A stretch of 63,146 bases of DNA, the filler included, from Malassezia furfur (lineage: Eukaryota): assembly GCA_052055015.1 (NCBI GenBank). It is 12 parts of 12 records of this genome, joined end to end, with 100 filler letters (N's around TTAATTAATTAA, not from the genome) between each part and the next. Parts side by side here need not be neighbours in the genome. Positions count along the whole stretch, not along the records: positions 26,577 to 31,773 come from JBQJIT010000623.1; 11 more parts are not named here. One strand, given 5' to 3'. Below the pieces are notes generated by a model that was not told the origin of the DNA, ran no database searches, and saw only the letters and a program-made list of their open reading frames with translations. The position numbers and the translations under genes are program-made. Position 1 is the stretch's first letter; the number at the start of each line of letters is the position of its first letter. Below are positions 1,026 through 60,082 of this stretch, piece after piece.

Positions 1026-1540
1026 ATGAGCAGCGACTTTCGCGCGCTGGACGTGGACCAGTGGGACGAGGAGCCGCTGACTGCCGCGGATCTCGCGATT
1101 GAGGACCCGCGGTCCGCCGCCGAGCTCCTCCAGATTGCGCAGCAGAAGCAAAGCGGCGTGCGCACGCGCCTCGCGAGGTAGGTTCCGGCCCGTGCTCACC
1201 CGACAGCAACGACACCGCCGGCGCCCTCGCCGCGATCCTGGACGACGCGCCGAGCGGGCACCATGCCGAGGAGGCGAAGCGCATCACATTTGCGCTCCTG
1301 CTCGAGACGCTGAACGCCACGCGCTCGACCGACATCCCCGCGGCGCTGCGCACGCTCGACACGGCGCAGCGCGAGACGCTGATGAAGTACCTGTACAAGG
1401 GCCTCGCGCTTGGCGGCACGCGCGCGGGTGCGGCCGAGGGCATCAACTGTGCCGTGCTGCTGCTGTGGCACGAAAAGCTCACGCAAGTCGCCGGCACGGG
1501 GTGCGTCATGCGCGTGATGACCGACCGTCGTGTTCTGTAG
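1026..1540 (+). CDS. ARC15: Arp2/3 complex subunit 5 (ARPC5/Arc15), 2 exons
   Basis: MSSDFRALDVDQWDEE...; 29-nt intron 1178-1206 (gtaggt...ctcac..cag); exon 2 reads ...LMKYLYKGL...VLLLWHEKLTQVAGTGCVMRVMTDRRVL*. Confidence 0.92.
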
Positions 1541-6362: not shown

Positions 6363-9300
6363 ATGAGTGCGAAACCAGCAGCGGCTCCAGCCGCGGGCCC
6401 CATTAAACTGGAGAATGTGCGTAGCGGCGTGTGCTGACCCAGACCGCGAAGCGCGACTTTCTGCGCTCGCTCGAGCAAAAGTACCAGCAAGAGTGGCGCG
6501 AGGCGCGCGTCTTTGACGTCGACTCGCCGACGAACGATGCGGCGCTGCAGGATCTCTCTCCGGAGGAGATCCGCGCCAAGTACCCCAAGTTCTTTGCGAC
6601 GATCCCGTACGCGTACATGAACGGCTCGCTGCACCTGGGCCATGCCTTTACGCTGTCCAAGGTCGAGTTTGCCACGGGCTACGAGCGCATGCTCGGCAAG
6701 CGCGCCCTGTTCCCGTGGGCATTCCACTGCACGGGCATGCCGATCCGCGCCGCGGCCGACAAGCTGATCCGCGAGATTGAGCTGTTCGGCGAGGACTTTG
6801 CCAAGTACGACGCCCAGGTCGAGGCGGAGGCCAAGGCGGAGGCCGAGGCCGAGGTCAAGGCGTCGGGCGGCGGCGACTCGCAGCGCGTCGACAAGGCGAC
6901 CAAGGGCAAGCTGGCCGGGAAGAACACCGGGCTCAAGTACCAGTTCCAGATCATGGAGAACAGCGGTGTGCCGCGCGAGGAGATCAAGCGCTTCGCCGAC
7001 CCGCTGTACTGGCTGCACTACTTCCCCCCGATCGCGCAGCGCGACACGACCGAGTTTGGCCTGCGCATCGACTGGCGCCGCGCGTTCATCACCACGGACG
7101 TCAACCCGTACTACGACTCATTTGTGCGCTGGCAGGTGAACAAGCTGCGTGCCATGGACAAGATCAAGTTCGGTGAGCGCTACACCATCTTCTCGCCGAA
7201 GGACGGGCAGCCGTGCATGGACCACGACCGCTCCGAGGGCGAGGGTCTTGGCCCGCAGGAGTACACCGGCCTGAAGATGGAGGTGGTGCAGTGGGGCAAG
7301 AACGCTGCGCCGCTCCTCGACGCCAAGCTGCAGGGCAAGCGCGTCTTCTTGGTGGCGGCGACGCTGCGTCCCGAGACCATGTACGGCCAGACGAACTGCT
7401 ACGTCGGCCCGAAGCTCGAGTACGGCGCGTTCGCGGTGAACGACACCGACGTGTACGTCTGCACGGAGCGTGCGGCGCGCAACTTTGCCTACCAGGGCAT
7501 TGTCGACACGCGCGGCAAGGTCGAGTGCCTCGCCAAGGTGCACGGCGCCGAGCTCGTCGGGACGCGCATCAAGGCGCCGTACGCGGTGCACAACGAGGTG
7601 TACGTGCTGCCGATGGACTCGGTGCTTGCCACCAAGGGTACCGGTGTCGTGACGAGCGTGCCGAGCGACTCGCCGGACGACTACGCGAACCTGATGGAGC
7701 TACGCAAGAAGGCCGAGTTCTACCACGTGGACCCCCAGTGGCTCACGTTTGACCCCGTACCGGTGATCCAGGCGCCGGGGTACAGCGAGATGATCGCCGA
7801 GGACCTCGTGAAGCAGTTCAAGGTGCAGAGCCCCAAGGACCGCAACGCGCTCGCCGAGGCCAAGGACGTGGCGTACAAGCAGGGCTTCTACAACGGCACG
7901 ATGCTCGTGGGCAAGTACAAGGGCGAGAGCGTGCAGGAGGCCAAGGCCAAGGTGCAGCGCGACTTGATTGCCGACCAGCTGGCGTTTGCCTACGCGGAGC
8001 CCGAGGGCCGCATCGTGTCGCGCAGTGGCGACGACTGTGTGGTGGCGCTGTGCGACCAGTGGTACCTGGACTACGGTGAGCCGTCGTGGAAGGCGCAGGC
8101 GGAAAAGCTCCTGGCGCAGATGAACACCTACCAGACCGAGACGCGCAACTCGTTCGAGGGCGTGCTCGCCTGGCTGCACCAGTGGGCGTGCGCGCGCTCC
8201 TACGGCCTGGGCTCCAAGCTGCCGTGGGACCCGCAGTTCTTGGTGGAGAGTCTGAGCGACTCGACGATCTACATGGCCTACTACACCGTCGCCTACCAGC
8301 TGCAGGGCGGCGTGGCCGACGGCAGCCAGACGGGCCCGCTCGGCGTGACGCCCGACCAGCTCACCGACGACGTGTGGGACTACATCCTGACCGGCGCGCC
8401 GTGGCCCGCGGACGCTCCGCTCCCCCGCGAGAAGGCCGACAAGCTGCGCCGCGAGTTTGAGTACTTCTACCCGATGGACCTGCGCTCGTCGGGCAAGGAC
8501 CTGATCAACAACCACCTGACGTTCTGCATCTACAACCACGCCGCCATCTTCCCCGAGAAGCACTGGCCGCGGGCGATGCGCGCCAACGGCCACCTGATGC
8601 TCAACGGCGCCAAGATGTCGAAGAGCACCGGCAACACGCTCTCCCTGCGCCAGTCGGTCGAGAAGTTTGGCGCGGACGCCTCGCGTGTGTCGCTCGCCGA
8701 CGCGGGCGACGGCATCGAGGACGCCAACTTCGAGGAAAAGACGGCCAACGCCAACATCCTCCGCTTCCACACGCTGATCGACTGGTGCACCGAGATGATC
8801 GCCAAGGCGAACGCCAACGAGCTGCGCACGGGCGCGCGTGATGCGTTCTGGGACCGCACGTTCGCCAACGAGATTCAGGCGGCGATCGCCGCGACGAAGG
8901 ACGCGTACGAGCGCGCGGCGTACAAGGAGGTGACCAAGATGGGCTTCTACGAGCTGCAGTCGTCGCGCGACCTGTACCGCGAGGCGACCGCGGACATCGG
9001 CATGCACGCCGACCTTGTGCGCCTCTGGATCGAGACGCAGGCGCTGCTCATTGCGCCCATTGCGCCGCACTTTGCCGAGCACATCTGGAAGGGCGTGCTG
9101 GGCCACACCACCACGGTCCACGACGCGCGCTTCCCCGAGGCGCAGCCGGAGGACGCGGCGCTGACCGCCGCCGCCGCCTACGTCCGTGGCACGATCAAGA
9201 CGATCCGCGACGCGGAGATCGCCGTGACGCGCCGCAAGGTCAAGGGCCAGGCGCCCTCGGAGAAGTACAACGAGCGCAAGCCGAAGGAGGTGTGCATCTT

Positions 9301-10003: not shown

Positions 10004-10536
10004 ATGGGTACCGCCGGGCGCCTCGCCGCGCTGCTGGGCTTCCTGCTCGTGGGCGCTTCGTTCGTTCTTCAGCTCTTGGTACGCAGCGGCGCCGTGGCTA
10101 ACCTGCAGAACTCTATCTCCCTGCCGTACATCCATGGCCTCTACTTTATGCGCCTCATCTCCGGCGACCAGGACCTGCGCGTACGTACCCCGCTTTGCAT
10201 CTCACCGCTAGTTTGGCGTCTGGGCCGGCTGTGTGATCTCCAGCACATCGCAGTGCTCGCCCGTGGGCCTCGGCTTCAAGCAACAGTCCCTGCAGGAGCT
10301 GTTTGGCAGCCGCCTCAACATCGGCTCGCCGTTCATCCACAACCTGCCCTATGCCCTTGTGCTCCAGCCGATCTCGGCGGGCTTTACGGGGATTGCGGCC
10401 GGTGCGGCGCTGCTCGCCGTGTGTACCAACACATTGCTGTACACCATCGCAACGTTCTGGGCGATGCTCCTGTCGATCGCCACGCTGGTGATCGAGCTCA
10501 TCCTCTTCATCAACGCTCGCAACAAGCTCAACAACC
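10004..10536 (+). CDS. SUR7/PalI (Rim9)-family tetraspan membrane protein, 3'-truncated
   Basis: N-terminal TM helix; introns 10079-10108 (30 nt) and 10181-10211 (31 nt). The spliced product has the FGVWAGC...QCSPVGLGF claudin-like motif and further TM helices. Confidence 0.75.
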
Positions 10537-10636: not shown

Positions 10637-10774
10637 TCATGGAGATCGACGAGAACCTCAAGTATACATTCCTCCAGTTTGACCCCGCGCCACGCACGGG
10701 CGAGCCGCTCGTCTCGCGCCGCGTCCCAGACGTACGTATGCTGCGCTTGGCTGACCTTGCAGTACTTTTTGTAA
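10637..10774 (+). CDS. PPH21: Protein phosphatase 2A catalytic subunit, C-terminal fragment
   Basis: [31 protein letters not shown], then 31-nt intron 10732-10762, then YFL*. This is the diagnostic PP2A-C tail. Confidence 0.88.
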
Positions 10775-11037: not shown

Positions 11038-11393
11038 ATGGCGACGCTGGGCGACTACATTGGGCTGGGCCTAATCCTGGCGCTCGTGTACGCGATCTAC
11101 ATGGGCCTACAGCACACCGATGACGCCAAGCGTGCCCTGAAAGAGAAGAAGCAGGAGCTCAAGGTGCGTCGTGCGCCCACGCAACTCACACAGGCCCACG
11201 GCATCGACATCTCGTCCGAGGGCATCTCGATCCGCTCGAATCACCGCAGCATGGATCGTTCCGCGTACATTGTACGTGTACAACACTCACCATACAGGAC
11301 GCGACGCAAAAGAAGTTCAACGAGGGCGGCGCCTTCCTGGCGGAGCACGCCCACTCGATGAAGTTTGGGCCCGGCGGCGACACGTCTAAATAG
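11038..11393 (+). CDS. Small (about 99 aa) uncharacterised single-TM protein, 3 exons
   Basis: [24 protein letters not shown]...KKQELK | intron 11164-11193 | [26 protein letters not shown] | intron 11272-11297 | [31 protein letters not shown]. Splice signals are canonical. Confidence 0.7.
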
Positions 11394-11430: not shown

Positions 11431-14269
11431 TTACGCCCCGCTCTCCGCCGGCCCGAAGCGCTTGGTAATGGTGCCATCGGCCTCCGAGTACACGTAACCA
11501 TTCGCCTTGAACACGCGGCTGAGCAGGAATGGACGCACATCGTACAGATCGAGCTCCTTGGCGCGCGTCTCGAGCTCGCTGAGGGGCACCGTGACGGTGG
11601 TGGGCATCTCGGCCTGGCGCCGCGTGCCGCCGTACCGCGAGAACCGCATCTTGTCCTTCACGATCCCGCCCAGCAGGAACGCCAGCAGTTCGTCGGCGTC
11701 GCGCGCCTGGTGGATGTACTTGCGGAAGCCACGCTCGAGCGTGCGCTTGATGCTCATCTTTTGCGCACTCACGAAGCTCTCGACCGTGGCACGGATCGCA
11801 ACGTCGATATCGACCGCACGCACATAGTCGCGCAGGTGCATCTTGGCACTCGCCTCGGCCATACGGATCATGCTCTCCAGGTGACGCACGGTGATGGGGT
11901 AGGACCCCGTGTTGAGCGACTCACGGCGCAGATCGACGTACAGACGCGACAACCGCTCCTCGTCGAGCGCGTCGAGGCGCGGCGTGATCCGATCCCGCGC
12001 GTACGTAATGTACTTGCGCAGCATGTCCTGCGGGATGATGTCGGCATCCCAGGTCGTCGCGACGCGCTGTTCATCCACCTCGTCGTCAAACAGCGGGTGC
12101 GCACGCGCGTGCGAGCTCACCACAAAGCGTGCCAGCATCTCGTCGTGCACCGGGTCGACCGTGTCCTTCACGACGCATAGCACGTCGAAACGGCTCAGAA
12201 TCGGCTCGGTCAACTCCACGTTCTGGCTAAAGGGCAGCGTAGGGTTGTAACGCCCACGGATCGGGTTCGCCGCAGCGACGATCGCGCAGCGTGCCTGCAG
12301 CGTCGCGATGATGCCTGCCTTGGAGATCGAGATGCTCTGCTGCTCCATCGCCTCGTGGATCGACGTGCGGTCCGCGTCGTTCATCTTGTCAAACTCGTCG
12401 ATGAGGCACACACCCTTGTCGGCCAGCACGAGCGCACCGCCCTCGAGTGTCCATTCGCGCGTGACCGGATCGCGGCGCACGCTCGCGGTCAGACCGACGG
12501 CCGAGGCGCCCTGGCCCGTGGCAAATACGGCGCGGCTCGCCGTCTTCTCGACGTACTTGAGGAACTGTGACTTGGCCGTACCAGGGTCACCGAGCAACAG
12601 GACGTTGATGTCGCCGCGAATGCGGTGCTTCCCGCCGACGTCCTTCGACACGCCGCCAAACAGGCTGAGCGCGATGGCCGTCTTGATGCTCTCATGCCCG
12701 TAGATACTCGGCGCAATGCTCTTGATGATCCGCTTGCCGATGCGGTCGTCGCGCGCCAGCGCACGGATCGCCTGCTCGTCATCCTCGGTGAGGCGGAACG
12801 CGGCATACGCATCGTCGCGCTTCGCGATGTGGTTCGCCTCGATCACCGTCGCAAACACGGGGAAGCCGTTCTTCGTGTTGAGCGCCGCATCAAAGTTGTT
12901 ACGGTAGATGCCCGTCACTTCAACCTCCTCACCGGGCTTCACAGCATCCACCAGGTCCCACAGCAAGATCACCTCGCGGTGCCGCGGCAGGCGGCCGGGC
13001 GGCACGCTCCCGGGTGACTCTTGCAGCGTCATCTTTTGGTAGTTGCGGTACACCGTCTGCTCCGAGTTCACACGGAAGGGGCCGCGGCGCGAGCAGTTGC
13101 TGCAGTAGCTGATCTTCAGCTCCTGGTTCGCGTCCTGCCAAAACGGCCCGAGCACCTCGCCACAGCTCAGACAGTCGAACTTGACGTACTTCAGCTGCGG
13201 GAACACGCCCGAGCGCCGCGTCACCACGCCGCTCACGCGCACCAGCGAGTTGAGGTTGCTCTGGCGCAAGTCGCGCAGCGTCACCGACGTCGGCAGATCG
13301 GTAATGCGCACGTGGATCTCGGAATGGATGCGGTCGTACGACGGGTAGTAGAGCAACACAACGTCGAACGCCACCTCGTCAAAGATGGGCAGGATGCTCG
13401 CCGGAGAGTTGGCAAGGAAGTAGGCCAGAATCGCCTTGGCCTCGACGAGCTGTAGGAAGGATACCTCGAGCGACTCGAGGTTAAGCTCACCGAGCGTCTT
13501 GATCCGCTGCCCGTACACACTCACACCTTGCTCATCGACGTAGGTCACCAAAAAGTTGCGGAACTCGCGCACAATTGTCCGCCGCACGTTTTCGGTTGCG
13601 ACCCACGCCGCAATGCTGTCCGCCTTGACGTCGCCCAGCTGCTCGATCGGCAGCTCGTCCTCGAGACGCTCCTCATCACGCTCCTCATCGTAGTGCCGTC
13701 GCCGCCGCCGGTGCAGCACGTCGTCTTCGCTCTCCTCGTCACTCTGAAGGAAGGTGGGCGCACGTCGCGAAATGCGCCCGACGCCCTCGGCGCGGTCGCG
13801 ACGCGCCATGCGCAGCTCGGCCAGCCGACGCGCATCCGTACTCATCCGCTCAACATAGGCGTCGTCCATTCCTTCTGAGGTGTACTGGTCCAGCTCAGGA
13901 TTCGCGGTGTAATCACTGGTGTCAGTGCACGCGACACGACGTACGCTTCAAGGGTGTCGCCAAACAGATCCTCGCCCTCGCCTTCCTCGATGCCGTCGTC
14001 CAGATCACGCACACCCTCTTCCTCGTCCAGCACGCTGCGCTCTTCCGCGTCATCGCCGTCGGTCAGGTCGGACAACGCGCCGGGTGGACTCGAGGTCGGC
14101 AGCGACGACGGCGGAATCGACGACGCACGCTCGTTCCCTGCATCACTCTCTCCGGATGCTGCCCATGGCGACGATGGGTCTAGCGGTCCACGCGACGTTG
14201 AACGCCGCCGTTTGCGCCCACTGGCGTCACGATCGGAAGACTGTGCGTTAGTCCGCGCTCACGTACCAT
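11431..14269 (-). CDS. MCM2: DNA replication licensing factor Mcm2, 3 exons
   Basis: GDPGTAKSQ, IDEFDKM, SRFD and a zinc finger. ATG-only first coding exon (14267-14269); introns 14241-14266 (26 nt) and 13916-13944 (29 nt). Confidence 0.96.
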
Positions 14270-17111: not shown

Positions 17112-17122
17112 CTAAGCGCACC

Positions 17123-19285: not shown

Positions 19286-20740
19286 TTAGAAGCCCAGCGA
19301 CGCGCGCAGCTCGTGCTCGAGCTCCGCCGCGGCGTCCGGCGCGGCGTCCGCGGGCTGCGTGCGCGCGTCGGCGGCGCGCTTCGACGCGGCCTCTGCGTCG
19401 AATGCCGAGGTGTCTGCGTAGGGCGCATCGGCGCGGCACCGCGCGCACGCGCACGGGCCGAAGCAGTAGTCGCGCCAGAGCAGCAGGCGGCGGCGCTCGG
19501 TCGGCAGCGCCGGGTCGATGTAGCTGATCACCAGCTCGTCGCCGTCGCGGATCGGGTGGAGCGCCTCGGCGCTGATGCGCGTCGCGGCGCGCACGCCGCC
19601 GCGGCTCGGCACGTGCCGGATGCGCACGTTCGGGTCGCAGTCGTGGTTGAGGTAGGAGTGCACCAAGTCTGCGTGAGTCGCGCGCACGTACACATCCCGC
19701 CGTGGCTCTCCATGTTGATGTTGGCGCGGCCCAGCATGCTGTGGTCAGTGTGGCGCCGCAACGTACCGTAGGAACGCGTCGTAGGAAAACACGCGGTCAA
19801 GGTCCGCCGCAGGGAACGCCGCGGCGCGCACGGGGAACGAGCGTGCGCGCTTCGGCTCGCGCGGGTCGAGCGTGCGCACAAGCAGCTCGTGCGCGGCGCG
19901 CAGCGCCGGCACAAACATGCGCGCCTCGACGTCCCAGCCGGGGTTGCGCGCGCGCCGCTCGAGCTCCGACACGGTCGCGAACGCGTCGAGGTGGTGCAGC
20001 GTCTCGGCGAACGAGGCCGGCGCGTCCTTGGTCGCGACGCCGTGCACGGTCGCGCCGGTGGTGGGCGACACGCTCGGCGGGGGGTGTGCGGACGCGGTGA
20101 GGAGCAGGCGGCTCAGCGCGCGCGCGACGGTGTGCAGCGAGTGCCACTGGTACTGCTCGAGGTGCTGGAGCAGCGCGTCCGCCGCCGGGTTCGTGCCGGG
20201 GCACAGCAGGGGATGGTGCGCCGCCTGGGCGCGCGCGAGGCACACGCGGTTGCAGAAGCGCGCATGGCACTTGCCGCCGGCCGCGCACGCGACCGCGAGC
20301 GAGCTGTTGGAGGTCGGCAGGAAGCAGTGGGTGCACAGCTCGCCGCTGAGCATCTTGGCGAGCTGGCTCGGCGGCGGCGCGGCGACGTACGCGTCTTCGA
20401 CCCACACCGACTGGCCCTGGGCGAACGGCTTGGTCGCGACGAGGCCACGGCCCTTGACGGGGTCAAAGTACACGGCGCGCACGCCGTGGGGGAGCGGGAC
20501 GGTCTCGTCGACGCTCGACACGGGCACCCACGGCTGCTGCTGCTGCCGCGCGTGGGCGGGGTCCTTGCGCAGGCCGGCGGTGGTGAGCAAGTTCTTGAGC
20601 CGCTTTTCGCTCAGCGACCACCCGTGCTCGGCCCGCAGCGCCGCGAGCAGCTTGGCGATGCCAGGCGCAGGCTGTGTGCTTTCGAGGCGCGCGCGCGCGG
20701 CGCGCACCACTTCTTCGTCGCTCGGCACGACGTCTGGCAT
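19286..20740 (-). CDS. SET5: SET/MYND lysine methyltransferase Set5 (SMYD-like), 3 exons
   Basis: KGRGLVA, CTHC...CHARFCNRVC; introns 19739-19766 (28 nt) and 19669-19691 (23 nt) restore GGMYLVHSYLNHDCDPNV; ELVISYID, CACARC. Confidence 0.85.
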
Positions 20741-24620: not shown

Positions 24621-25426
24621 CTATACATGCTCGGGGGCTTTGTTCTCCTCCTCTCCAGACAGATTCACCTCGTCCTCTTCTGCAGGAACCGACTGGTACG
24701 TCGCATGTGCCTCGTTCGCCGTACGCGACTTGGACAGCGGCAGCATCCAATAGGTGCCATGGCGCAGATGCAATGCGTATGCATACAGCACCAGCGCAAA
24801 GTACAACTTGATCAACCAACCGCCGATGAGCACAGCCAGGGCAAAGTCGCGCTCCTCCATCCACGTCGCATTCGCGGCCTGGGCTCGGCGCGCGGCCTCC
24901 TTCTGGCCCTCGGGCGTGTTGATGTCGTATTCCTTGTGACGGTACTTGGCCATTTCTTCGGGCGTGCGGTACTCAGACTCGAGATCCTCGATGAGCTTCA
25001 TCAGTCCTGCCTGGTGGCTCGAGTTTGAGATTGGCTTGCCGTCGTGCGTGGCATACACGAACCACCACAGCGCGAACAAAAAGGTCCAACCCGTCGAGAT
25101 CATTTGGTCCAAGATGAAAATGTGCGCGTAGCGGAGCACGGAGCCTGCCTGCTCCTGCACGGTCAGAAAGAAATACGTACGTCACTGATGGCTTTCAGGC
25201 CCCAGATGAAAATAGGAATGGTCGCGATGGAGTAGATGTAGAGCGAGAGCTGCGCAATGGTGCCGCCCTGAAAAATGGCAATGATCCCATAGATACCCGC
25301 AATCTTGTTGAAAAGAGAGAAAAGGGTGAAAATTTGACTGCCCACTTTGATGTCCATAAAACCAAGAAACGAGGTGATGTATGCCTGCAACGACGCCTTC
25401 GGGAGGCGTAGAAACAGTCGCGGCAT
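24621..25426 (-). CDS. KEI1: Inositolphosphorylceramide synthase regulatory subunit Kei1-like, 2 exons
   Basis: SFLGFMDIKVG...LFNKIAGIYGIIAIF...QLSLYIYS; 26-nt intron 25155-25180; KLYFALVLYAYA. Confidence 0.8.
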
Positions 25427-25601: not shown

Positions 25602-26129
25602 CTAGATATCCCAATCCTCATCGTCACTGTCCATGTTCTTCTTGCGCGTGACCTGCGTGAGCGGGTGCAACCTACCGTAATTTTTCCCGTGTCGTGCGGC
25701 TGCGCCTGGTCGATCTGGTCCAGGAGCGAGATGAGCTGTGCTTCGCTCACACGCTGGCGCACTTGACCGCTGCGTGCCATCTGAATGAGGATGTCCGTCA
25801 CAGCTTTCGACTTTTGCGGCTTGACGAGTGCGATCCGCGACACTGCGTGAGCTTTCCTATGCACATACACCGCTCGCGTGCATCGCTGTCCAAAATCTGC
25901 GAAAGCATCTGACGCTTCATCTCCTCCTGCTGCGCCATCTGCTCTTCCCGCTCCGCGTCCGTGCCGGCCTGGCCGCCCATCCCGCCGGCGCCAGGCACAC
26001 CGCCAGGCACGCGGGGACTACTGCTCCCTGTCGATAAGTCCACAGCCCCACTGCGCACGTACCGCCACTGGCTGCGCGCAACTCCGCCATGCGCGCGCGG
26101 CGAATCGCTTCAAGTTCTGGATCGCTCAT
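25602..26129 (-). CDS. PDCD5: PDCD5/TFAR19-family protein, 4 exons
   Basis: MSDPELEAIRRARMAEL...MLSQILDSDARERLSRIALVKP...LIQMARSGQ; introns 26028-26062, 25843-25868 and 25653-25675 (23 nt); ends VTRKKNMDSDDEDWDI*. Confidence 0.9.
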
Positions 26130-27067: not shown

Positions 27068-29502
27068 ATGTTCATGCTGAAGAGTTGTGCGTAGCGCGCG
27101 TGGCTGACCCAGTGTTTGGCAAAATATGGAGTGACAACAACAACCTCGAGCTCATCCAGCTGCCGGCCGGCTCGCTCTACCTCGTGCGCCCGGGCGACGT
27201 GAAGGGCGCGCGCGAGTGCATCTACAAGGACGCGCTCGCGACGATCCGGCGCACCTCGACCCCACACCACTACCAGTTGGTGATCACGCGCGCCATCCCC
27301 GCGGGGAGCGCACAGGTGCTCGATGGCGAGGAGCCGAACGAGGAGCTGTCGTTCCTGATCGACGAGGCACTCCAGTTCCACAGCAGCACGTTTGACGACC
27401 AGCCGACGTTTGTCTGGCGGGACTACAGCGCGGGCGCCGAGGACCGCATGCAGTTTGTCGTCGACGCGCAGAAGGTGAACGCGGTGACGCGCTCCATTTT
27501 TGAGGTGACGTACCTACAGTGTGCGTGGGAGCGCAAGACGGGGCGCAGTCACGAAGAGGCCACGGACGACGACCTCGAGCGGCTCAAGTACACGGGCGAC
27601 GATGCGGTGGGCGTCGGCGTCGTGGGCGCCGCGGCCGCGGCCGAGGCGTCTGCGGAGGCAACGAAAGACGCACCCACCACGCCGACCAAGGCGCACGCCC
27701 CTCCCGCCGAGGCGACACTGACGCCGCGTGCGTCGCGGCCCGCGGCGCCCACCGAGTCGCTGCAGTCGATCACGGGCACGTCGGAGCCGCGCATTGTGCT
27801 GACGGCGACCGCAGACCTGTACCTGTACGACCAGGCGAGCGGCCTGTTTATGCGGCAGGAGAAGAACGTGCAGGCGAAGGTCGCCGAGGCCGGGCGCTTC
27901 CTGTACTGGATGGTGGTCGACGGCGCGTCGGCGCCGTGGCTGTCGCAGGCGGTCGACAGCCGGATGAACATGAACTTCTCGCAGGAGAACTTGTCGGCGG
28001 TGTGGAACTACTTTGACGCGGACCGGCGCGTGTTCTCGTGGCTGCTGCGCTTCGGCAATGCGGCGGCCTACCAGGCGTTCCAGGAGCACTTTTCGCACCT
28101 GCTCTGGGAGACGCTCAACGAGGAGGCGTGGGGCAAGGCGTCGGCGGTCGACAAGCAGTACGTCGAGCAGGCGTACGAGCAGGACGTGAGCATGACCGCC
28201 GCGGATGCCGACGAGGAGGCCGGCGAGGCGGCGTCGCGGCGTGCGTTGCTCTCTCCGCGGCACACGGCGGCGCTGAGCAGCGACGAGGAGAGTGCGGACG
28301 AAGTCGAAGCCGAGCTCGACCCGATGGACGAGGACGACGAGGAGGACGTGCACGACGACGACGAGCCGCCGGCCGCCGTGCAGCCGGCCGACGACGGACA
28401 GGTCAACTCGCAGCTGGCTGTCGGCTACAAGTTTGACCGCTCGTTTGTGGTGCGCGGCGACAAGATTGGCGTGTTTAAGCACACGGACGACGACCGCCTC
28501 GAGTTTGCGACCTCGATCAACCACGTCCGCACGCCGCAGGGCAAGGCGTTTGCGCCTGGGCGCGTGATGCTGCACGAGCAGGACTCGGCGATGGTGCTGA
28601 TGGACCCGCAGAACCAGCACAGCCTGTACCGCATGGACCTCGAGTACGGCAAGGTGGTCGAGGAGTGGAAGGTCCACGAGGACGTGCCGGTGACCAACAT
28701 TCTGCCCAACACCAAGACGGCGCAGATGACCGCGGACAAGACGCTGATCGGCACGTCGCGCAACGGCATCTTCCGCATCGACCCGCGTCTCGACGGGCAG
28801 AAGCTGGTCGACTCGCAGTTCAAACTGTACACGTCGAAGAACGACTTTAGCGCGGCGGCCACCGACGAGCACGGGCGTCTGGCGGTGGCGAGCAACAAGG
28901 GCGACCTGCGCCTCTTTGACAAGATCGGCAAGAACGCCAAGACGGCGCTGCCCGCGCTCGGCGACCCGATCCTCGGCGTGGACGTCTCGGCGGACGGGCG
29001 GTGGGTGGTGGCCACGTGCCGCACCTACCTGCTGCTGATCGACACGCTGATCAACGACGGGCGCTACGCCGGCTCGCTCGGCTTCGACCGCGCGTTCCCT
29101 GCCGACGCGCGGCCGCTGCCGCGCCGCCTGCAGCTGCGCCCGCACCATGTGGCCTACATGGAGAGCGAGGTGCACTTCACCCCCGCGCACTTCAACGTGG
29201 GCACCGGCGGCGAGACGAGCATCGTCACCTCGACGGGCAACTACGTCGTGTCGTGGTCGTTTAGCGCGGTGAAGAAGGGCAACCCGTATGCGTACGTGCT
29301 GAAGCGCTACCAGGGCACGGTGGTGCGCGACGAGTACACCTACGGCTCGGACCAGTCGATCGTCGTGGCGTTCGAGAACGACGTGCAGCTTGCGCACCGT
29401 GCGCAGCTGCACAAGCCGACGCGCGCGTCGCTCGCGCCCGGCGCCGCACCGCGCACGAGCACGAGCACGTCGCGGGCGCCGCGCCGCATCACGCGTGGAT
29501 AG
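27068..29502 (+). CDS. VID27: Vacuolar import and degradation protein Vid27, 2 exons
   Basis: MFMLKSL | 26-nt intron 27087-27112 | FGKIW...; NSQLAVGYKFDRSFVVRGDKIGVF, LYRMDLEYGKVVEEW, AKTALPALGDPI. Confidence 0.92.
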
Positions 29503-29515: not shown

Positions 29516-31773
29516 TCACAGAAAGTTGAGTGCGGCCGCGAGCTTGTCCGCCGGGTCCGCATCGAGGCGCGCCATCTCGATTTCGGAGAGGAGCTTTTTG
29601 ATGCCGATCGAGAGACGCCCCTCCTGCTCGAGGCCCGCGTGCGCGAGCAGCTGCAGGCAGCGCTGGCGCGCCGCGTCGTCGGCAAACAGTTGCGTCTCGC
29701 GCAGGACGTGGTCGACGCTGCGCAGCGACGTGATGTTCGGCACACGGATGTCGGCAAGGAAGGCATCGCCGAGGTCCATCTCGGTGAGCATCGTCTTGTT
29801 CGACGTGGTGCCGAGCACAAGCAGGCGGCGGTCCTTGGGCGGCTGCTTGCCGAGCAGCACCGCCAGCGCCTGCAGCACCGGGTTCGAGAAGCGCGGGCCG
29901 ATCGGGTTCCACTCGATGATCTTCTCGAGCGAGTCGAGCACGATGATGCTCAGCGGGCTCTTGTATGCGTCGTTGAACACCTTGTGCAGATACGCAATCT
30001 TGCCCGACTCGTTCATGCCCACCATGTTCTCTGGCGCGACCAGCTTGATGAAGGGGAAGTCGGACGCCATCGCGATCGTCGCCGCCAGCGCCGTCTTGCC
30101 CGAGCCCGCCGGGCCGTGCAGCAGGGCGGTGACGAGCGAGGTGCGTGCCGACGTGCGCACTTGCTCGACACGCAGCTGGCCGTCGCGCAGGATCACGTCG
30201 ATGTGTGGCGCGTAGTGCATGATGCCGTTGCGCACCACCTGCTGCAGCTCCTCCTCGGCGACACCAAACGCGGGCTTCACCTCGTCGAGCGCACACAAAA
30301 AGTCGTCGCGGTTCACGCGCATGTTTTCGACGTCGTCCGAAATGCCCGCCACCGTGCCGACCTTGACGTGCCGGTTGAACGCAAAGCTCGTCGCGCTCTT
30401 CACCAAACCGGCGATCTCCGCACCGGAGAAGTTTTTCGTGAGTGCCGCCAGCTCGTCGAGGCGCACGTCGTGGTCCATGATGTCGTTCGCACGCATCTTG
30501 GCCGTCTGGATGTTGAGGATCTGCAGCCGACCGTGCTCGTCGGGCAGGCTAATCTCCATGTGCACCTCGAGACGCCCGGGGCGCAGGAGCGCCTCGTCAA
30601 TCATATCGAGGCGGTTCGTCATGCCGATCAGCAAAATGTTGTTCAGCTGGTCGACACCGTCCATTTTCGAAAGCAGCTGGTTCACCACCGAGTCGCCGAC
30701 GCCCGTGCCGCCGCTCGTCGAGCCACGCTGCTTGCAGATCGCGTCCAGCTCGTCAAAGATGATGATGTGCAGGCCACTCTCATCGCCCTTGGCCTTCTGC
30801 TCGGCCTCGGCCTCGGCAAACAGCTTGCGCACGTTCTCCTCACTGGCACCCACGTACTTGCTCAGAATCTCCGGGCCATTGACCACCTTGGGCTCGCCGG
30901 CGTTAAGCATCTTGCCGATCTGCCGCGCCATGAGCGTTTTGCCTGTGCCGGGCGGGCCGTAGAGCAGCAGGCCCTTGACGTGCTGGATACCCAGCTTGTC
31001 GACCAAGTCCGGCGGGAAGATGCGCGAGGCAAACGCACGCCGGAAAATCGCGCTGAACTCGCTGTCCAGCCCACCGATGCCCATGTCCTCAAACTTGAAG
31101 TTGGGCTGCAGAATGGCATTCGTGCGCGGGCGCTTGCCGCTCGCCTTGAGCTGCATCGGGCTGTTGGGCGCCTTGATAAAGTTGATCTGCGTCTGCGGCG
31201 TGACAAGGCCCAGCTCGCTGCCAGGCACCTGGTCCATCGACGCCAGGCCTCGCACCGTCGCGCGCAGGTTGTGCCCGTGGAATTCAAACACGAGAATCTG
31301 CCCAGGGGACAGGACGTGCGCGCTGAACGCCGTGAGGAAGGTCGCCTGCATCTCGTCCGCGTCGAACACATCCATCACCGCCATGCTGCGGCTCAGAAAA
31401 TCAAGCTCGAGGTCGATGCCACCCAGATACAGCGCCGAGCCAAACTGCTGCGGATCAAACGCCTCCACCGTGACGTCCTGGCCCTCGGCGCTCAGCGCGG
31501 CCCACTGCCGCTGCAGCAGCGCGGTGCCGATCGTGCGCGGTGCGATGGTGCGCGTGTTGTCGGCGCTGCATTAGCCAAAGACGTACCGTGCCGTAAATGT
31601 ATAGCGTCCATTCACCACGACGTACTGCGTGTGCCCCCACTCCTCGGGGTTGAGGATGACGCAGTTGGTGGTGTTGAGCGACTGCGGCGCCTTGACGACG
31701 CGCATCATGTGCGGCTGCCGCGACTCGGCGGTGCGCGGCGCGACGCCCGCCGCCGGGCGCGGGGGAAGGGCCG
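29516..31773 (-). CDS. SEC18: Vesicle-fusing ATPase Sec18/NSF, 5' end probably truncated
   Basis: MGIGGLD, FRRAFASR, GPPGTGKT, IIFDELDAICKQRG and a D2 domain. The N-domain continues upstream across a 21-nt intron at 31566-31586. Confidence 0.96.
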
Positions 31774-31873
31774 NNNNNNNNNNNNNNNNNNNNNNNNNNN
31801 NNNNNNNNNNNNNNNNNTTAATTAATTAANNNNNNNNNNNNNNNNNNNNNNNNNNNNNNNNNNNNNNNNNNNN

Positions 31874-39112: not shown

Positions 39113-39911
39113 TTACATGATGCCGCAGCACGAGTCTGGGTGAGCGTGCGCTGGGACGTACTTTGCTTGCGCGCCGACTTGTAGAACATCTTGCTCTGCT
39201 GGCTGAGCGAGCCGCTCTTTTCCACGAGCTTGTCGAGGTCCTCGCCGCGCTGCAGGACCGAATCGATGGTGTTGTGCTGCGTGAGCTTCCTGGACCTACC
39301 AGCACGATCTTGGTGTCGTCGAGCTCCTGCTGCACGCGCAGGATCGTGTCGGCCTGGCGCGGGTCTTGGTAGCGTGCGAGGTACTCCTGCGCCTGCGGGA
39401 ACTCGCTCGACTTGACGATGCCCTCGCCCTTCGACGGGATGTTGCCGCTAAGCGCGAGGTTGTTCGCCTGCGTCTGCCAGCTGGTCTTGGAAACCTTGAT
39501 CATAAACTCCTCCAGCAGCTTGTTCAGCAGCGAGAAGGCGACGCGCACCGGGTACTCGCTGTCCGAGATCAGCACACCGCTCACGCCATCGATCGCCGGG
39601 CGCGCATGCACGTGCGCCGTGAACTGGTTCTCGGACACGGACTGGCGCTGCGTGGGCGAGGTGCGCTCGGCGACCGTCTGTGTAAGTAGGTGCCCGGGTG
39701 CGGCGCGACACGCACCTTGGCCATGAACGCCATCATGTCCTGCACCGTTCCGCGCTGGATCCACGAAAAGGAGTTGAGGTCCCATGCACTCAGCAGCAGC
39801 ACGGCCGGCTGGCCGGGCTGCGTCGCAAAGATGAGCACCGAAACTGGGTTAGGCGCGCGCGCGCTACGTACACAGCTTCCTGCGGTCAGTCGCGCCTCGC
39901 TCCACCTACAT
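39113..39911 (-). CDS. YKT6: Longin R-SNARE Ykt6, 6 exons
   Basis: Spliced protein MKLFSVLIF...DLNSFSWIQRG...YPVRVAFSLL...YQDPRQAD...[30 protein letters not shown]...KQNSCCGIM*. Introns 39880-39909, 39844-39871, 39678-39715, 39277-39299, 39136-39161. Confidence 0.93.
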
Positions 39912-39983
39912 GTTGGTTGCGTGCTGGCGGCTCGCGACAACCCGTGACCCGATCGGCGCACGATCGGGGGCTTCTTCCCCGCC

Positions 39984-45302: not shown

Positions 45303-45344
45303 GCCATAGTAGGCCCCGCGGTCCTGATAGCCGCGTGACCGACC

Positions 45345-46435: not shown

Positions 46436-46761
46436 ATGGCCGGCGCCGCGACGATTCTGCCGCTCGAGCTCGTGGACCGCTGCATCGGCAGCAACATCTG
46501 GGTCGTGATGAAGACGCAGCGCGAGTTCGTCGGCAAGCTGCTGGGCTTTGACGACTACGTCAGTACGTATTCCCGCTAACCAAGACATGGTCCTCGAGGA
46601 CGTCACGGAATAGTACGCATCCCAACTCACGCAGCGAAGCGACGCCGCAGGGGTACAAGAAGAACAAGCTGAGCAAGACGCTGCTCAACGGGAACAACAT
46701 CTGTGCGGTACGTGGCGTGCTTACGCAGTTGATTCCGGGCGGCGCGGGACCCGAGGCATAG
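46436..46761 (+). CDS. LSM5: U6 snRNA-associated Sm-like protein Lsm5, 4 exons
   Basis: [19 protein letters not shown]...[19 protein letters not shown]...[14 protein letters not shown]; introns 46563-46584 (22), 46613-46634 (22) and 46708-46728 (21). Confidence 0.95.
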
Positions 46762-49120: not shown

Positions 49121-49952
49121 TTAGTTTTGCAGCCGCTTGTGTGCATCGCTCGCGATGCGCTCGACCTGCGCGGTGTGCGCCTTGATGAGGTCCTCGAGGC
49201 GCTTCCCTTCCTTCTGCGAGGTGTTTTTGCTGATCACCTTGTTGTCCAGGTCGTGCTTGAGCTGTTTCTGTGCCGTGTGCCGCTCGCTGCGGAGCGCGAT
49301 CTTGGCGTGCTCGCACGCCTGGGAGCACTTGTGCAGCAGCTGCTGCCGCGTCTCACCCGTGGGCCTGCGTCAGCGGGCAACGTACTTGGGCACCGGGACC
49401 ACCAGCACGCCCTCGCCCTCCTCGGGCGCAAGGCGCGGCGTCAGGTCGAGCTTGGCGGCATAGATGCCACGCTCAATGTGCTTAATCGACTGCATCAGCA
49501 AGCACACGCACACTCTCGTCGTATGCCGTGATGACCAGGCAGTTGTCGCGCACGCCGACCGTCGCGTAGTCGTGCAGCGGCGTGGGCTTGGCGTCCTTGC
49601 CGTACTGCACACGGACCGGGTCCAGGAGCGCTGGGTCAGCATGCAACGTACACGCATCGACGCGGCCCAGCGAGCCGACCAAGCCCTGCACGGCCTCGGC
49701 GCACCGGGCCACCGTCTTGGTCATCTTGTCGTTCAGCGCGTCGAGGTCCAGCTGGCCTTCGACGTCCGCGGGGGGCTCCGCTGCGCCCTTGTCGCCGCCC
49801 TTTTTCTTCTTGGCGACCACCGCGGAGGTCGTGAGGGGGCGGGGCATGGGCGCGGCCAGTGCGGCGGTGCGTGCGGCCGCGAGGCTGGGCAGCGCGCGTC
49901 GCGGCGCCGTCCACGCCGAGCGTGCGAAGCGCGGTGCGAAGCGGGTGAGCAT
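49121..49952 (-). CDS. RRF1: Mitochondrial ribosome recycling factor, 4 exons
   Basis: Presequence, then GRVDASLLDPVRV...ATVGVRD...SIKHIERGIYAAKLDLTP...VPVPKPTGETRQQL; introns 49631-49651 (21), 49490-49511 (22) and 49365-49385 (21). Confidence 0.85.
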
Positions 49953-50113: not shown

Positions 50114-50783
50114 TCAATCGTACTCCTCGTCCTCCTCGAGCGCACGCTTCGTGCCCTGCGCGCTGTCCTTGGGCTGGGCTTCCTCCATGGTGGTATCGGC
50201 GCCTGCATCGTGCGTGGCGCCCGAGGACGTGGCGCGCGTGCCAGCGTCGGGCGGCGGCATGATCGAGTCGCCAAACTGCGTCTCGGGGGCGTTCGGCACG
50301 ATCGAGAAGTTGACGTTCATCAGGCAGTGCTCCGGCGGGGGCAGGCGGATCCCGTGGCGGTTCGACACGGGCGGCAGCGACACGCTGTTGAGCGACGATG
50401 CGAGCGAGAGGAGCATCTGTGTGAGCGGGGCGCCACGGAGCCCGACGTACCTCCTTGGGCGGCGGCTGCGAAAAGCTGTAGTTGACACGGCTCTGGATCG
50501 CGAGCTGGACGTCATCGATCGACACGTTGCTCCCCCCCTGCCGCGAGGCGGCGTGGTCCGCGTAGACGAGCGCGTCTTGGAGCACCTGGCTGGTGTACCC
50601 TGTGTGAGCCTTGCGGGACGTACGGTGCGCAAACTCCATGAGCTGCACGAGCACCGCCGGCTCGGTGTCCTCGATGCCCATACTCGCCAGGATCAGCGCG
50701 ATGAGCCGTGCGTCGCGCGGCACGGGCGTGGACGCAGGCGCGTTGTTCGGCGCCGGGCGCGTCTCCGTCTTGCTCGTGGACAT
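50114..50783 (-). CDS. TAF9: TFIID/SAGA subunit Taf9, 3 exons
   Basis: PRDARLIALILASMGI...QLMEFAHRYTSQVLQDALVYADHA...PPPKEMLLSLA...GIRLPPPEHCL; introns 50600-50623 and 50417-50450. Confidence 0.94.
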
Positions 50784-53098: not shown

Positions 53099-53605
53099 CT
53101 ACAGCTCCTTGTGCATAGCCTTGCTCGCCGTGATGCGTGGGCCCTGGATGTCGAGCAGCTCGACGTCGAACACGAGCGACGCGTCCGGCGGGATGACGCT
53201 CCCGGCGCCCGCGGGACCGTATGCAAAGTGCGGCGGGAGCAGCAGACGGCGCTTCTCGCCAATGCACATCTCGCGCAGGCCTTCGTCCCAGCCGCGGATC
53301 ACCTGGCCGATGCCCAGCGTAAAGGACTGCATTAGCACCGCACATACACGCGCGCATACGTACAAACGGCTGGCCCCGGTCGAGCGACGAGTCAAACTTG
53401 GTGCCGTCCCACAGCTTGCCGGTGTAATGCCTTTGGGTGAGTCCGGCGGTACCTACATCACCAACTCGTCGCCACGCTGCGAGCGGAACTCGCACTTCTC
53501 CGGCTTAAACTTGGTCCCGATCTGCATCATCTTCGGCGGTTCCTTGGCCGCGACGCCGGCAAGTCCGGCGCACGCCAGCGCAGTCCACAGCAGGCCGAAT
53601 CGCAT
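53099..53605 (-). CDS. FPR2: ER FKBP-type peptidyl-prolyl isomerase (FKBP2/Fpr2), 3 exons
   Basis: Signal peptide; [40 protein letters not shown]; introns 53431-53456 and 53327-53363; ends HKEL. Confidence 0.92.
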
Positions 53606-53650
53606 CGTAAGCAGAGGAAGTGGGGGGAGGGTCGTGGGGCAAGTGGAGGT

Positions 53651-55463
53651 CTATGGTCGGAGCTCCGCACCGAGGCGCGCCTCGAGCTGGCCCAACTCCA
53701 GCGGAAGGCGCACTCCGGTGCTCGCGAGCGTCTGGTGCTGCGGGAAAAAGGCCAGTAGGTGGCTGGGTGCGCGGAGCACGAGCTGCGCAACCAGGCTCGG
53801 CCCACGGTAGATCAGCACGGTGCCCCCGCACGCCGGGTCCGCTCCGCCCTCGCTGGCAAGGTCCAACAGCGACACGAGCCACGTCCGCACATCGGCCAGC
53901 ATCTCGTATGGCTTCCACACGTACGTAGCGTCCGTATGCGCATCCACGACACGGTCCAGCACCGCACGGAGCCGCGAAAGGTACTGCGTCAGCACAATGA
54001 CGTACCAGGGTATATTGGTACAAGCGCCACAGCGGCGCCATTAGGTCCGCCCGCGGCGGCGCAGGACGCGCGTTGATGCGCGCGCGGCGCTGTGCATCCA
54101 TACGCTGCGTCCAGCTGCGCAGCATCCGCAGCCGAAGCACGGCGAGCAGCAGCGACGCGTGCGGGGAAGCCTCGGCCTCGGTCTCCACCGCGTCCTGCGG
54201 CACGAGCGCAATCTCCAGCTCCAGGCCAGATGAGAGCGGCAGTGTGATGCTCGACTCGCTCACGACGCGGGCCAGCACGGGCGAGAGGGTACCCGAGTGG
54301 GCCGCGAGGTCGTGGAAGAGCTGCGAGTCGACGGCGTCGCGCTGGGCGTCACACAGCTGCGCGTCCAGCGACGCGTCGGCATCGGGCACACGCGCGCTGC
54401 TCACCCACCGCTTGCTGCCGTCGGTCGTCTGGAATGTGACGCGCAGCTGACGCCACGCACGGTCCGGGAAAGCGAGGCGTGCGCTGTGGTCGTCGCCCGC
54501 CTCGGCCCAGTACGCCAGCGTGCGCTGGAGAAGCGAGATGGGCGCCTCGGCGGGGCCGTACCCGATCCACGCATCGCGCGCGCCCTCCTCATTGAGCGCG
54601 CCGCTGCCCTGGAGCACGGGGGTGCCGAACCCATCGAGGACGTTGGCGCGGCGGCCAGCCATGTCGAAGCGCTCCATGTCCACGAGCGGGCGCCCCGGCG
54701 TGAGTTTCCAGCCGCGCTTCTGGATCGCACTCAGTGCCGACCAGCGCGCACGTTCCGGCGCGGCGCTCTTGCGCAGCTCTGCGGCGCCGCTCGCGAGAAT
54801 GTCGGCGCAGCGGCGCAGCGACTGCTCCTTTTGCTCCAAGAGGAGCTTGCGCTCGTGCAGCGGTGCGGCGGCTGTGGTCGACTCCGGCTCCGTGTCCTCC
54901 TGCGGCTTGGCAAGCGCGCTGAGCGACACGGTCTGCGGCTCGAGAAAGTACTCGGGCTGGGCCGCCAGCACGGTGGACAGGTCGCTGCCCGGCGCGACCT
55001 GGGCGCGCGCGTTGTGGATGAGCATGCCGAGCAAGTTCTGTGCCTGCTCGGCGTTGAACAGGGCCATCTCGAGCTGGTGCAGCATACGGTCGCGCAGCGG
55101 GAAAAACTCCGACTCGGCAATCGTCCCTGCCTGGATCGGCACGGCGGTCGGCGAGGGCGACGCCTCGCGGCGCAACGCACGCAGCTGCTCGAGCGCGCTC
55201 AGTTCTGTCTTCTCCTCGGGCACCAGGTCCGCCGCGTGCACTGCCGAAAAGTCGCCGCGCTCGGCCCACATCTGCAGCCGGACCTGCCGCTGCGCCTCGA
55301 GCGGCGTCTGCTTTTCCGCGTGCACGGGCACGCCACTCGCAAGGATGTCGAGCAATTCTGCCTCACGCAGCAGCAGCGTATCCTGCGCATCCTGTGTGTC
55401 GTCGGCGAGCGGCGCATGGAGCACGCGCTCCAGCGCGAGGCGCACGCGCGACGACGCGGCCAT
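53651..55463 (-). CDS. MED17: Mediator subunit Med17 (Srb4)-like, 2 exons
   Basis: RVRLALE...LQMWAERGDFS...RDRMLHQLEMALFNAEQAQNLLGMLI...AADILASGAAEL...ERARWSAL; 22-nt intron 53984-54005. Confidence 0.72.
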
Positions 55464-58135: not shown

Positions 58136-60082
58136 ATGGACGCCCTGCCGCCGGAGCTGCTGGCGCGCGTCCTGGCCGCGCTCGACCCGTGCTCGCTCGC
58201 GCGCGCGTGCTGCGTGTGCCGCGCGTGGCACGATGTGGGCATGCGCGACACCGTGTGGGCGTGCGCCGCGCGCGCCGCGCACTACACCGACGCACGCGAC
58301 GTCCGCGCCGCCGTGCAGCCATACCAGTTCGGCGCGCCGTTCGCGAGCGCCGCGGCGTACTTTGACGCGCTGCACAGCTTCCGCGACCTCTGCGTGAAGC
58401 GGCACATGCTCGACGTGCGCTGGGGCACGCGCGCCGCGCCGCACGCGGACCTCGCCGCGACGACGCTCGCATTGCGCCCGCACGTGCACTACTACCGCCC
58501 GTCGGGCGCGCGCGAGGACGTGTGGCGCATCCAGCTCGAGTACGTGGCGCACTGACGCAGCCCGCTGGAGAACTGCCTGCTCGAGTCGCACGTCGGCGGC
58601 GGCGTGCGCGCCGTCGACATCCACACGGGGCGCGTCCTGTGGCGCTCGGACCCCACCGACGCCCGGCCGTACCCGCACCTGGAGTTCGACAACGGCTGGC
58701 TCGTGTTCGACCGCGACGCGCCGGGGCACTTTGAGATCTGGCGGAGCGCGCGCCTCGTGCCGGACGCGCACGAGGCGCACCGCGGCGAGTTTGTGCGCTA
58801 CACCATCCTCGACGTGCCCGAGATGGTGCGTGCGTACCGCCTGCAGTTCCCGACCCTCGCCTTGTACGTGCATGCCTCACGCAGCGTGACCATCTTTGAT
58901 ACGTACGCGGAGCTCGACGTGCGCACCAAGTCGCTCGTGCGCCGCGTGCCGCTCGGCCACACCCTGCACGGCCACCGCAACATCCACTACATCGAGTTCG
59001 ACGACGACTACCTCTTCCTCGTAGGCTATGGCGCGAACCGCGCGTCGGCGGTGCGGCGCGACACGGGCGCGGTCGTCTGGACGCTCGCCGAGCACATCCA
59101 GCGCCACGGCGCGCCGCACTGCTTCCGCTCCGTGCCGCGCGCCACGGGCGAGCGCCATGCGCTGCTCCTCCGCGAGCAGGAGCGCGTGCCCGCCCCGCGC
59201 TGGCTCGCCCAGCTCGCGCACCGCGCCGCGGGCGACCCCGCGCAGCTGTGCTACGCGTGGCACGCGGTGCACTTCGACCGCGACTCGCACACGCTCGTCC
59301 TCCTCGGCGAGTCGGGGCTCCTGCTCGTGCCCGACTACCGCGCGGTGCTCGCGGGCGAGCCGCCGGCGCAGCCGCTGCGCATGCACCTCTTTGCGACGGA
59401 GCGCGACGTGCCGCCGAGCGACGACGACACACTGCCGTTCCGCCGCCGCCCGCGCACCGAGATGCACGGGCAGCTGAGCGTCGCCAACGGCCGCGTCGCC
59501 GCCGTGTACGAGACGCTCACCATGCTCGACCTGCACGCGCCGACGCACGGACGCGACACCGACGGGCGCCGCATCGAGGTGCCCTTTGCCGTGTACGAAT
59601 GGTCCGACCCGCCGAACGCCTTCGACTGGTTCACGGGGCCGATCGACCAGTTCCGCGGGTGCAGCTGCGTCCAGCTGGATGCCACCGGCCTGTACTGCGT
59701 CACGCGCCAGGCGCTCGACCGCGAGATCGGCGTGTCCCCCGACGACTTCCCGCCGGGCTACCAGGCGGAGTGCCTGCGCCACGACTCGAGCATGGTCACC
59801 GCCTTCCACTTTGACGACCGCGCGCAGCCGCCCGAGGTGCTCGAGCACGCCGCCGCCGCCTTCCCGACGCCGCCGCCGCTCGACCACATCGCGCTCCTCG
59901 CCGCCGACACGGACGCTGCCGCCGAGACCGAGGCCGACGGCGCGCACGCCGAGCTCGAGGAGGAGCTCGTGAGCCCGGCCCTGGAGCAGGCGATCCGCGC
60001 CCTCGCGCCAGCGCAGGCGCCCGCGTGGGCAGACGAGGAGCCAGCCTCGAGCGACGACGACTCACCCGCGCCAGCGCCATAG
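58136..60082 (+). CDS. F-box protein with predicted beta-rich C-terminal domain (paralog 1)
   Basis: MDALPPELLARVLAALDPCSLARACCVCRAWH (F-box); 21-nt intron 58540-58560 with an in-frame TGA; probable 21-nt intron 58864-58884. Confidence 0.8.

Follow-up and report, generated by a model that had tools for sequence, protein, structure and literature searches.

We have analysed a 63,146-nucleotide (nt) window of the genome of the skin yeast Malassezia furfur (assembly GCA_052055015.1; the window is the whole stretch of DNA examined, 12 parts joined end to end), and conclude that 21 nt on its minus strand, at 31566..31586 in the gene SEC18, very probably form an ordinary U2-type GT-AG intron. This intron would lie in phase 2, at a position ancestral in Basidiomycota, and would have shrunk from about 50 nt. 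It belongs to a curated set of 36 introns of 21-38 nt, among which eight are 21 nt long, four are 22 nt, three are 23 nt and none is shorter than 21 nt. The eight 21-nt introns all have the same layout, GTACGT + 6 nt + CTNAY + NCAG (6+6+5+4).

The SEC18 gene and its 21-nt intron

The gene at 29516-31773 and beyond, on the minus strand, is predicted from its sequence to encode the SEC18/NSF vesicle-fusing ATPase. Pfam profiles match two AAA stretches, CDC48_2 and AAA_lid_3, together with a weak CDC48_N match in exon 1 (E = 0.16). The best protein match (P0001, Malassezia furfur) is 100% identical, and matches of 65-100% identity from other Malassezia and basidiomycetes are named SEC18 or vesicle-fusing ATPase. 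Exon 2 occupies 29516..31565, with its stop codon at 29516-29518, as judged from reading frames, Pfam and the named homologs. The readable part of exon 1, assigned from sequence and frames, occupies 31587..31773, has an N-terminus that agrees with the public M. furfur protein P0167 (WFD47469.1), and runs on upstream through N runs at 31774-31817 and 31830-31873.

Read on the minus strand from 31586 to 31566, the 21 nt are GTACGTCTTTGGCTAATGCAG. They comprise the donor GTACGT (31586-31581), a spacer (31580-31575), the motif CTAAT (31574-31570) and the tail GCAG (31569-31566), and match the extended donor consensus with GT at the 5' end and AG, within CAG, at the 3' end. CTAAT stands 4 nt before the intron end and contains the branch nucleotide predicted from the motif. 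A TAA at 31573-31571 closes the upstream minus-strand frame (31571..31825), and it is in frame because that frame and the 684-codon SEC18 frame beginning at 31570 are one and the same. Removal of the 21 nt, which interrupt the Arg codon CG|C in phase 2, gives ...NGRYTFTAR|ADNTRTIAPRTIG..., that is YTFTAR|ADNTRTIAP, and the product is the full 800-residue ATPase. A sequence-only reading of this DNA had described the donor, CTAAT, CAG and in-frame TAA, and had argued that the segment must be removed. The description is exact to the nucleotide, and removal is borne out both by the frame of the TAA and by orthologs that are collinear once the 21 nt are taken out.

The orthologs P0003, P0004, P0008, P0026, P0015 and P0036 have no 7-residue insert at the junction, and neither do P0166 (M. 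obtusa), P0167 and nine further proteins; the ortholog consensus across it is (Y/F)xFTAx(A/P)D(N/T)T. When the SEC18 N-terminal region was compared by tblastn with 80 fetched loci, the alignment showed an insert or break precisely at the junction residue in many basidiomycete loci outside Malassezia. Each of the 16 metagenome loci with such an insert or break, when re-examined, proved to have a GT...AG intron there, 48-66 nt long, that interrupts the corresponding Arg/Lys codon, also in phase 2. Because the same codon and phase are occupied throughout these loci, the intron position is regarded as ancestral. At five Malassezia-like metagenome contigs of about 83% protein identity (L001-L004 and L048) the site is uninterrupted and reads FAFTA(I/R)PDNT. 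The M. furfur lineage thus appears to have retained an ancestral SEC18 intron, shortened to 21 nt, that other sampled Malassezia have lost.

Viewed across the loci, the position is occupied in many basidiomycetes (among L035-L066) and in the M. furfur/M. obtusa-like group and is absent from L001-L004 and L048, a distribution that we interpret from the alignments as lineage-specific loss of the SEC18 intron inside the genus Malassezia. Open-reading-frame (ORF)-style public calls are in keeping with this. In one, for an M. obtusa-like protein of 95% identity, the frame changes precisely before ADNT. Additionally, a second M. furfur SEC18 allele (P0172) reads RYVTH-stop where the window reads RYVFG-stop, which suggests, on protein evidence alone, an altered intron spacer in that allele.

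The principal competitor is a 60-nt intron at 31566-31625, whose use would leave SEC18 without 13 N-domain residues and the 21-nt form minor or unused. Its donor would be an upstream in-frame GTACGT at 31620..31625 on the minus strand. Several observations count against the 21-nt intron and in favour of the longer one: both donors are the same heptamer GTACGTC, 39 nt apart; both versions keep the frame; the 60-nt intron is the one removed in two (P0001 and P0168; KAI3620161.1 and KAI3628325.1) of the three public SEC18 models for M. furfur; and the codon-score gene finder of this analysis also chose it, so that sequence signals alone do not separate the two donors. The gene finder's preference amounts to a scoring tie and is not necessarily a problem of minimum size. 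If 21 nt sits at the size limit, the roomier 60-nt intron could also splice more easily on kinetic grounds. Set against these points, the 13 codons between the donors encode QYVVVNGRYTFTA, which is conserved in every ortholog examined and lies in an intact reading frame in M. furfur, and identity with the uninterrupted L002 gene at 9 of the 13 residues indicates that these codons are translated. The ancestral position found in 16 of 16 loci matches the downstream donor and not the upstream one, which is merely a run of Gln-Tyr-Val codons, and the 21-nt splice is present in P0166 of M. obtusa and in the 800-residue P0167 of M. furfur, which reads YTFTARADNT. Thus, homology favours the 21-nt intron, and we consider it improbable that the 60-nt intron is the one used, while a 60-nt form may occur as a minor isoform.

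It is harder still to credit an absence of splicing, in which the TAA would end a short ORF followed by a downstream SEC18 start, or would reflect read-through or a sequencing error. Such a reading draws on ORF-style public calls that split SEC18, with P0172 (122 amino acids) ending 4 residues past FTAR and others of 619-652 amino acids beginning at internal Met codons. A downstream start, however, would cost about 180 residues of the SEC18 N-terminal part, although the upstream frame encodes the conserved N-terminus MAGFFRG...NTTNCVILNPEEWG..., and read-through would add 7 residues (RYVFG-stop-CS) that are found in no homolog. The stop also stands 4 residues past FTAR in the P0172 allele, after YVTH in place of YVFG, and its recurrence behind different intervening residues argues against a sequencing error. 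We therefore attach very little probability to this explanation, and retain the 21-nt intron as the preferred reading of the locus. As they stand, the public M. furfur SEC18 models disagree with one another, P0001 and P0168 dropping the 13 conserved residues and P0167 keeping them.

Short introns across the window

Introns were collected with a motif scan (GT[AG]NG[TC] ... CTNA[CT] ... AG) coupled to scoring of the flanking frames, and with a dynamic-programming gene finder based on codon scores that allowed introns of 10 to 250 nt. A strict flank filter (25 open codons and >6 bits per side) misses the SEC18 21-mer, and a relaxed filter was applied. In this G+C-rich DNA (window G+C about 67%) a 'longest downstream ORF' rule for frames was unfit for seven genes, for which gene-finder phases were used. 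The gene finder is crude and predicted 81 introns, 46 of them >40 nt. These longer introns were dropped, as they were mostly of low score and fused neighbouring genes or created antisense 'genes'; five short low-score introns (45299-45330, 35778-35810, 37573-37605, 51192-51227 and 52448-52487) were dropped as well. The curated set consists of the 30 remaining gene-finder introns and six from the motif scan (31566-31586, 60238-60258, 25843-25868, 10079-10108, 1178-1206 and 39880-39909); 35 were tabulated and the 36th was added separately.

Most curated introns (33 of 36) are 21-31 nt long, and 28 of 36 are at most 29 nt. Among the tabulated introns the median is 26 nt and the mean 25.8 nt, and lengths modulo 3 are distributed 11/10/14 (n=35). 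The sequence-only reading had counted about 41 introns, mostly of 21-31 nt. Its size range holds, while the total comes down to 36, and its tally of eight, four and three introns at 21, 22 and 23 nt, with none below, was reproduced by scan and gene finder. The architecture it proposed (a 6-nt donor, about 6 nt, a branch motif, 4-5 nt to the AG and no polypyrimidine tract) likewise agrees with the 6+6+5+4 layout of all eight 21-mers and with the composition of the spacers across the set.

Among the 35 tabulated introns, 23 have GTACGT as their donor and 25 have only 4 nt after CTNAY; CTNAY occurs in all curated introns, which is partly by construction of the search. Spacers between donor and branch motif are 70% G+C with 16% T, and so contain no pyrimidine tract. 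The 6+6+5+4 layout was found nine times in the window against 0.14 expected from 200 dinucleotide shuffles, the ninth match being nested in a 37-nt FKBP intron. Motif matches of length 21 also number nine, against 1.14 expected, a count attained in 0 of 200 shuffles. By contrast, lengths 17-20 pooled give five matches against about four expected, which is the level of chance, and spacers of 5 nt or less or tails of 3 nt or less show no excess in the same control. The few GT..AG candidates below 21 nt with coding flanks are all nested inside validated 22- and 23-nt introns, and the gene finder, free to go down to 10 nt, chose no intron below 21 nt. Similar motif matches at other Malassezia-like loci are 22-36 nt long, in a small sample examined by motif scan alone.

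Homology or Pfam coordinates support 19 of the 36 introns (three each in LSM5, the mitochondrial ribosome recycling factor (RRF) gene and YKT6, four in F-box genes, two in TAF9, and one each in FKBP, PDCD5, KEI1 and SEC18), with weaker support for two more at the 5' end of YKT6. Once freed of its introns of 22, 22 and 21 nt, LSM5 is collinear with five annotated Malassezia LSM5 models, among them the public M. furfur protein P0121, from which it differs at one residue, and with five LSM5 proteins from other fungi. These introns lie on the plus strand at 46563..46584, 46613..46634 (behind a 28-nt exon at 46585-46612) and 46708..46728, and all three were found by the gene finder, the third by the motif scan as well, and are supported by homologs. 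The RRF gene, on the minus strand, is collinear with 10 homologs after removal of introns of 21, 22 and 21 nt at 49365..49385, 49490..49511 and 49631..49651, each of which is supported by gene finder, Pfam and homologs; its exon pieces match Pfam profile positions 17-54 and 86-163.

Two tandem F-box paralogs on the plus strand provide an internal comparison. They have one 21-nt intron in common, in the same aligned column and phase (58540..58560 in gene 1 and 60515..60535 in gene 2, both from gene finder and paralog comparison). Each has a second 21-nt intron of its own, at 58864..58884 in gene 1 (gene finder and paralog comparison) and at 60238..60258 in gene 2 (motif scan), and these private introns are validated because the partner reads uninterrupted at the corresponding place. 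The two genes, at 58136-60079 and about 60092-61658, encode 634 and 489 amino acids and have 194 identical aligned residues.

Pfam coordinates are continuous over a further group of junctions, all on the minus strand. In TAF9 they run from 36 through a split codon to 38 across a 24-nt intron (50600..50623) and from 82 to 83 across a 34-nt intron (50417..50450); in the PDCD5-like gene from 48 through a split codon to 50 across 26 nt (25843..25868); in KEI1 from 65 to 67 across 26 nt (25155..25180); and in FKBP from 35 to 36 across 37 nt (53327..53363). The 21-nt candidate nested in this last intron, at 53327-53347 with an internal GTATGT, was rejected: its use shifts the frame, and the Pfam coordinates fit the 37-nt intron. 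The internal GTATGT is a built-in decoy donor, as is the donor upstream of the SEC18 intron.

Three junctions of YKT6, on the minus strand, are collinear with orthologs, namely those of introns of 26 nt (39136..39161, gene finder), 23 nt (39277..39299, motif scan and gene finder) and 38 nt (39678..39715, motif scan and gene finder). The start of the gene, at 39872-39912, is more elaborate. Its start codon appears to be split (AT|G) by a 30-nt intron (39880..39909, motif scan); next come a micro-exon of 8 nt (39872-39879) and an intron of 28 nt (39844..39871, gene finder and orthologs). The spliced N-terminus MKLFSVLIFAT resembles the MKLYGLLIFAN of orthologs, whereas the public M. furfur model P0223 begins MPNPVSVLIFAT.

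A possible lower size limit and the splicing machinery

The shared layout suggests how such introns might be recognized. Splicing would proceed by intron definition on compact signals, with a strong donor and branch motif and without a pyrimidine tract. With the branch A presumed to be at intron position 16, the lariat loop would be 16 nt and only 5 nt would separate it from the 3' junction, a distance that would be too short to accommodate a pyrimidine tract or U2AF65-type binding of the classical kind. A 21-nt minimum would then be the least spacing at which the catalytic centre can take up the helices of U6 with the 5' splice site and of U2 with the branch, followed by the 3' AG. The abrupt onset at a spacer of 6 and a tail of 4, taken from the distribution of the 36 introns, fits a geometric minimum, and the data fit a steric floor or an adapted spliceosome in M. 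furfur. We put forward only tentatively, as a possibility short of an even chance, that M. furfur splicing has a fixed minimal geometry of this kind, with a 16-nt loop, 5 nt from branch to junction, no pyrimidine tract, and strong GTACGT and CTNAY signals at 67% G+C. It is with similar reserve that we extend this reading to YKT6, where splicing might even cope with an intron-split start codon (30 nt), an 8-nt micro-exon and a 28-nt intron.

Spliceosomal introns of about 18-27 nt, close in size to their signal content as in M. furfur, are known from ciliates, nucleomorphs, microsporidia, myxozoans and dicyemids. These groups have A+T-rich or reduced splice-site motifs, in contrast to the strong donor and branch motif of M. 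furfur at about 67% G+C. Stentor introns are about 15 nt long. In Yarrowia lipolytica the branch motif almost abuts the 3' AG, as here, in introns that are much longer overall, and what is unusual in M. furfur relative to that yeast is the 6-nt spacer between donor and branch. Among published values, introns average 25 nt in Paramecium (10.1101/2021.08.05.455221), measure 18-20 bp in chlorarachniophyte nucleomorphs (PMC5014332) and have a median of 22 bp in myxozoans (PMC13644364). The nucleomorph range puts the eukaryotic minimum below 21 nt.

Within the genus, M. sympodialis and M. restricta display the same short-intron phenomenon as our window. In M. sympodialis 5350 curated introns average 30 bp, with 99% RNA-sequencing support (PMC5389616, Table 2), the median in M. 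restricta is 30 bp (PMC9241646), and in a review the introns of Malassezia genes are described as 'very short' (PMC7426719); for the window the median is 26 nt (n=35), with 8 of 36 at 21 nt. For M. sympodialis and M. restricta the excerpts, which do not include Fig. S8 of PMC5389616, report mean or median lengths, and no lower edge or layout. Public M. furfur records already contain splices of this size, P0167 lacking the SEC18 21-mer and P0121 lacking the three LSM5 introns of 21-22 nt. Thus, tiny Malassezia introns and the SEC18 splice itself are already known, and of what the sequence-only reading had stated, the shortness of Malassezia introns agrees with the literature (PMC5389616, PMC9241646) while the novelty of fungal introns near 20 nt is overstated. 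The excerpts of two papers on ultra-short introns (PMC13644364, PMC5014332) and of a fungal survey (PMC8476143) do not single out Malassezia, and the literature searched contained no statement of a 21-nt lower edge, of the 6+6+5+4 layout, or of work on the Malassezia spliceosome or U2AF.

The 21-nt edge could instead be a small-sample impression, or the plain sum of the signals under deletion pressure, with a handful of introns no longer than 20 nt across the genome and no special adaptation. What weakens the case for a fixed floor is that its estimate comes from 36 introns in one 63-kilobase window and that motif and reading frames are the sole basis for 15 of them. The M. restricta annotation was run with minimum intron lengths of 20 and 15 nt, settings that do not reveal the true minimum (PMC6473144), and nucleomorph introns indicate that spliceosomes can go below 21 nt (PMC5014332). 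The splicing genes of the window also look ordinary: Slu7 (47790-49100, plus strand) has its full Pfam domain, Cef1 (56816-57946, minus strand) has Myb_Cef, and LSM5 (46436-46761, plus strand) is present; all three look intact, and thus there is no sign here of stripped-down splicing machinery. Neither Rfam nor tRNA scanning gave any match in the window, and so no small nuclear RNA (snRNA) genes to set beside the splice signals. An explanation from sampling or deletion pressure nevertheless sits uneasily with a length mode that equals the minimum (8 of 36 introns are precisely 21 nt), with the one layout of all eight 21-mers, with spacers and tails that yield nothing beyond chance below 6 and 4 nt, with a gene finder that never went below 21 nt, and with sub-21-nt candidates that are nested in validated 22-23-nt introns. 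We regard this explanation as possible, if rather unlikely.

Annotation still goes astray on tiny introns that have look-alike donors close by: 13 conserved N-domain residues are missing from two of the three public M. furfur SEC18 models, and in the public YKT6 model the intron-split start codon and the 8-nt micro-exon seem to have been overlooked. The window also offers a clean picture of the lower edge of intron size in a fungus (6+6+5+4, 21 nt), one that is uncited in comparisons of ultra-short introns. Should the 21-nt edge prove steric and hold throughout the genome, M. furfur would be a culturable, transformable yeast in which to measure the smallest substrate of a canonical spliceosome. 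It could then also reveal the enabling factors, such as U2AF/Mud2, SF1, second-step factors or snRNA changes.

Other introns and features of the window

The remaining introns of the set are mostly of 23-31 nt. On the minus strand, the SET-domain gene has introns of 23 nt (19669..19691; motif scan, gene finder and frames) and 28 nt (19739..19766; gene finder and frames), and gene finder and frames likewise identify introns of 26 and 29 nt in MCM2 (14241..14266 and 13916..13944) and a second intron, of 23 nt, in the PDCD5-like gene (25653..25675). A further FKBP intron of 26 nt (53431..53456) comes from motif scan, gene finder and frames. On the plus strand, 26-nt introns were found in the leucyl-tRNA synthetase gene (6417..6442; motif scan and gene finder) and in VID27 (27087..27112; gene finder and frames). 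The SUR7-like gene, on the same strand, has a 31-nt intron (10181..10211; motif scan, gene finder and frames) and a 30-nt candidate (10079..10108; motif scan and frames). A small plus-strand gene at about 10639-11393 has introns of 26 nt (11272..11297) and 30 nt (11164..11193), both from motif scan and gene finder, and a 31-nt gene-finder candidate (10732..10762) whose phases did not chain cleanly. Another plus-strand candidate, of 29 nt at 1178..1206, was identified from the motif and coding flanks alone.

The C-terminus of MED17 (53508-54005, minus strand) is ambiguous. A 22-nt candidate intron at 53984..54005, proposed from motif and frames only, would change the frame for the last 110 codons; the unspliced frame is also open for 166 codons, and Pfam favours neither frame.

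A single open frame at 17108-18070 on the plus strand codes for a COX16 domain (residues 26-105) as well as an Erv1/Alr domain (residues 212-311); it represents either a fusion or a pair of neighbouring genes that share a frame. A GT..AG candidate of 44-48 nt (17069/17073-17116) lies at its start. Finally, 11 pairs of 44-nt N runs, the members of each pair 12 nt apart, recur about every 5.3 kilobases across the window; these are masked stretches through several genes, among them SEC18, part of whose exon 1 is covered by one pair.

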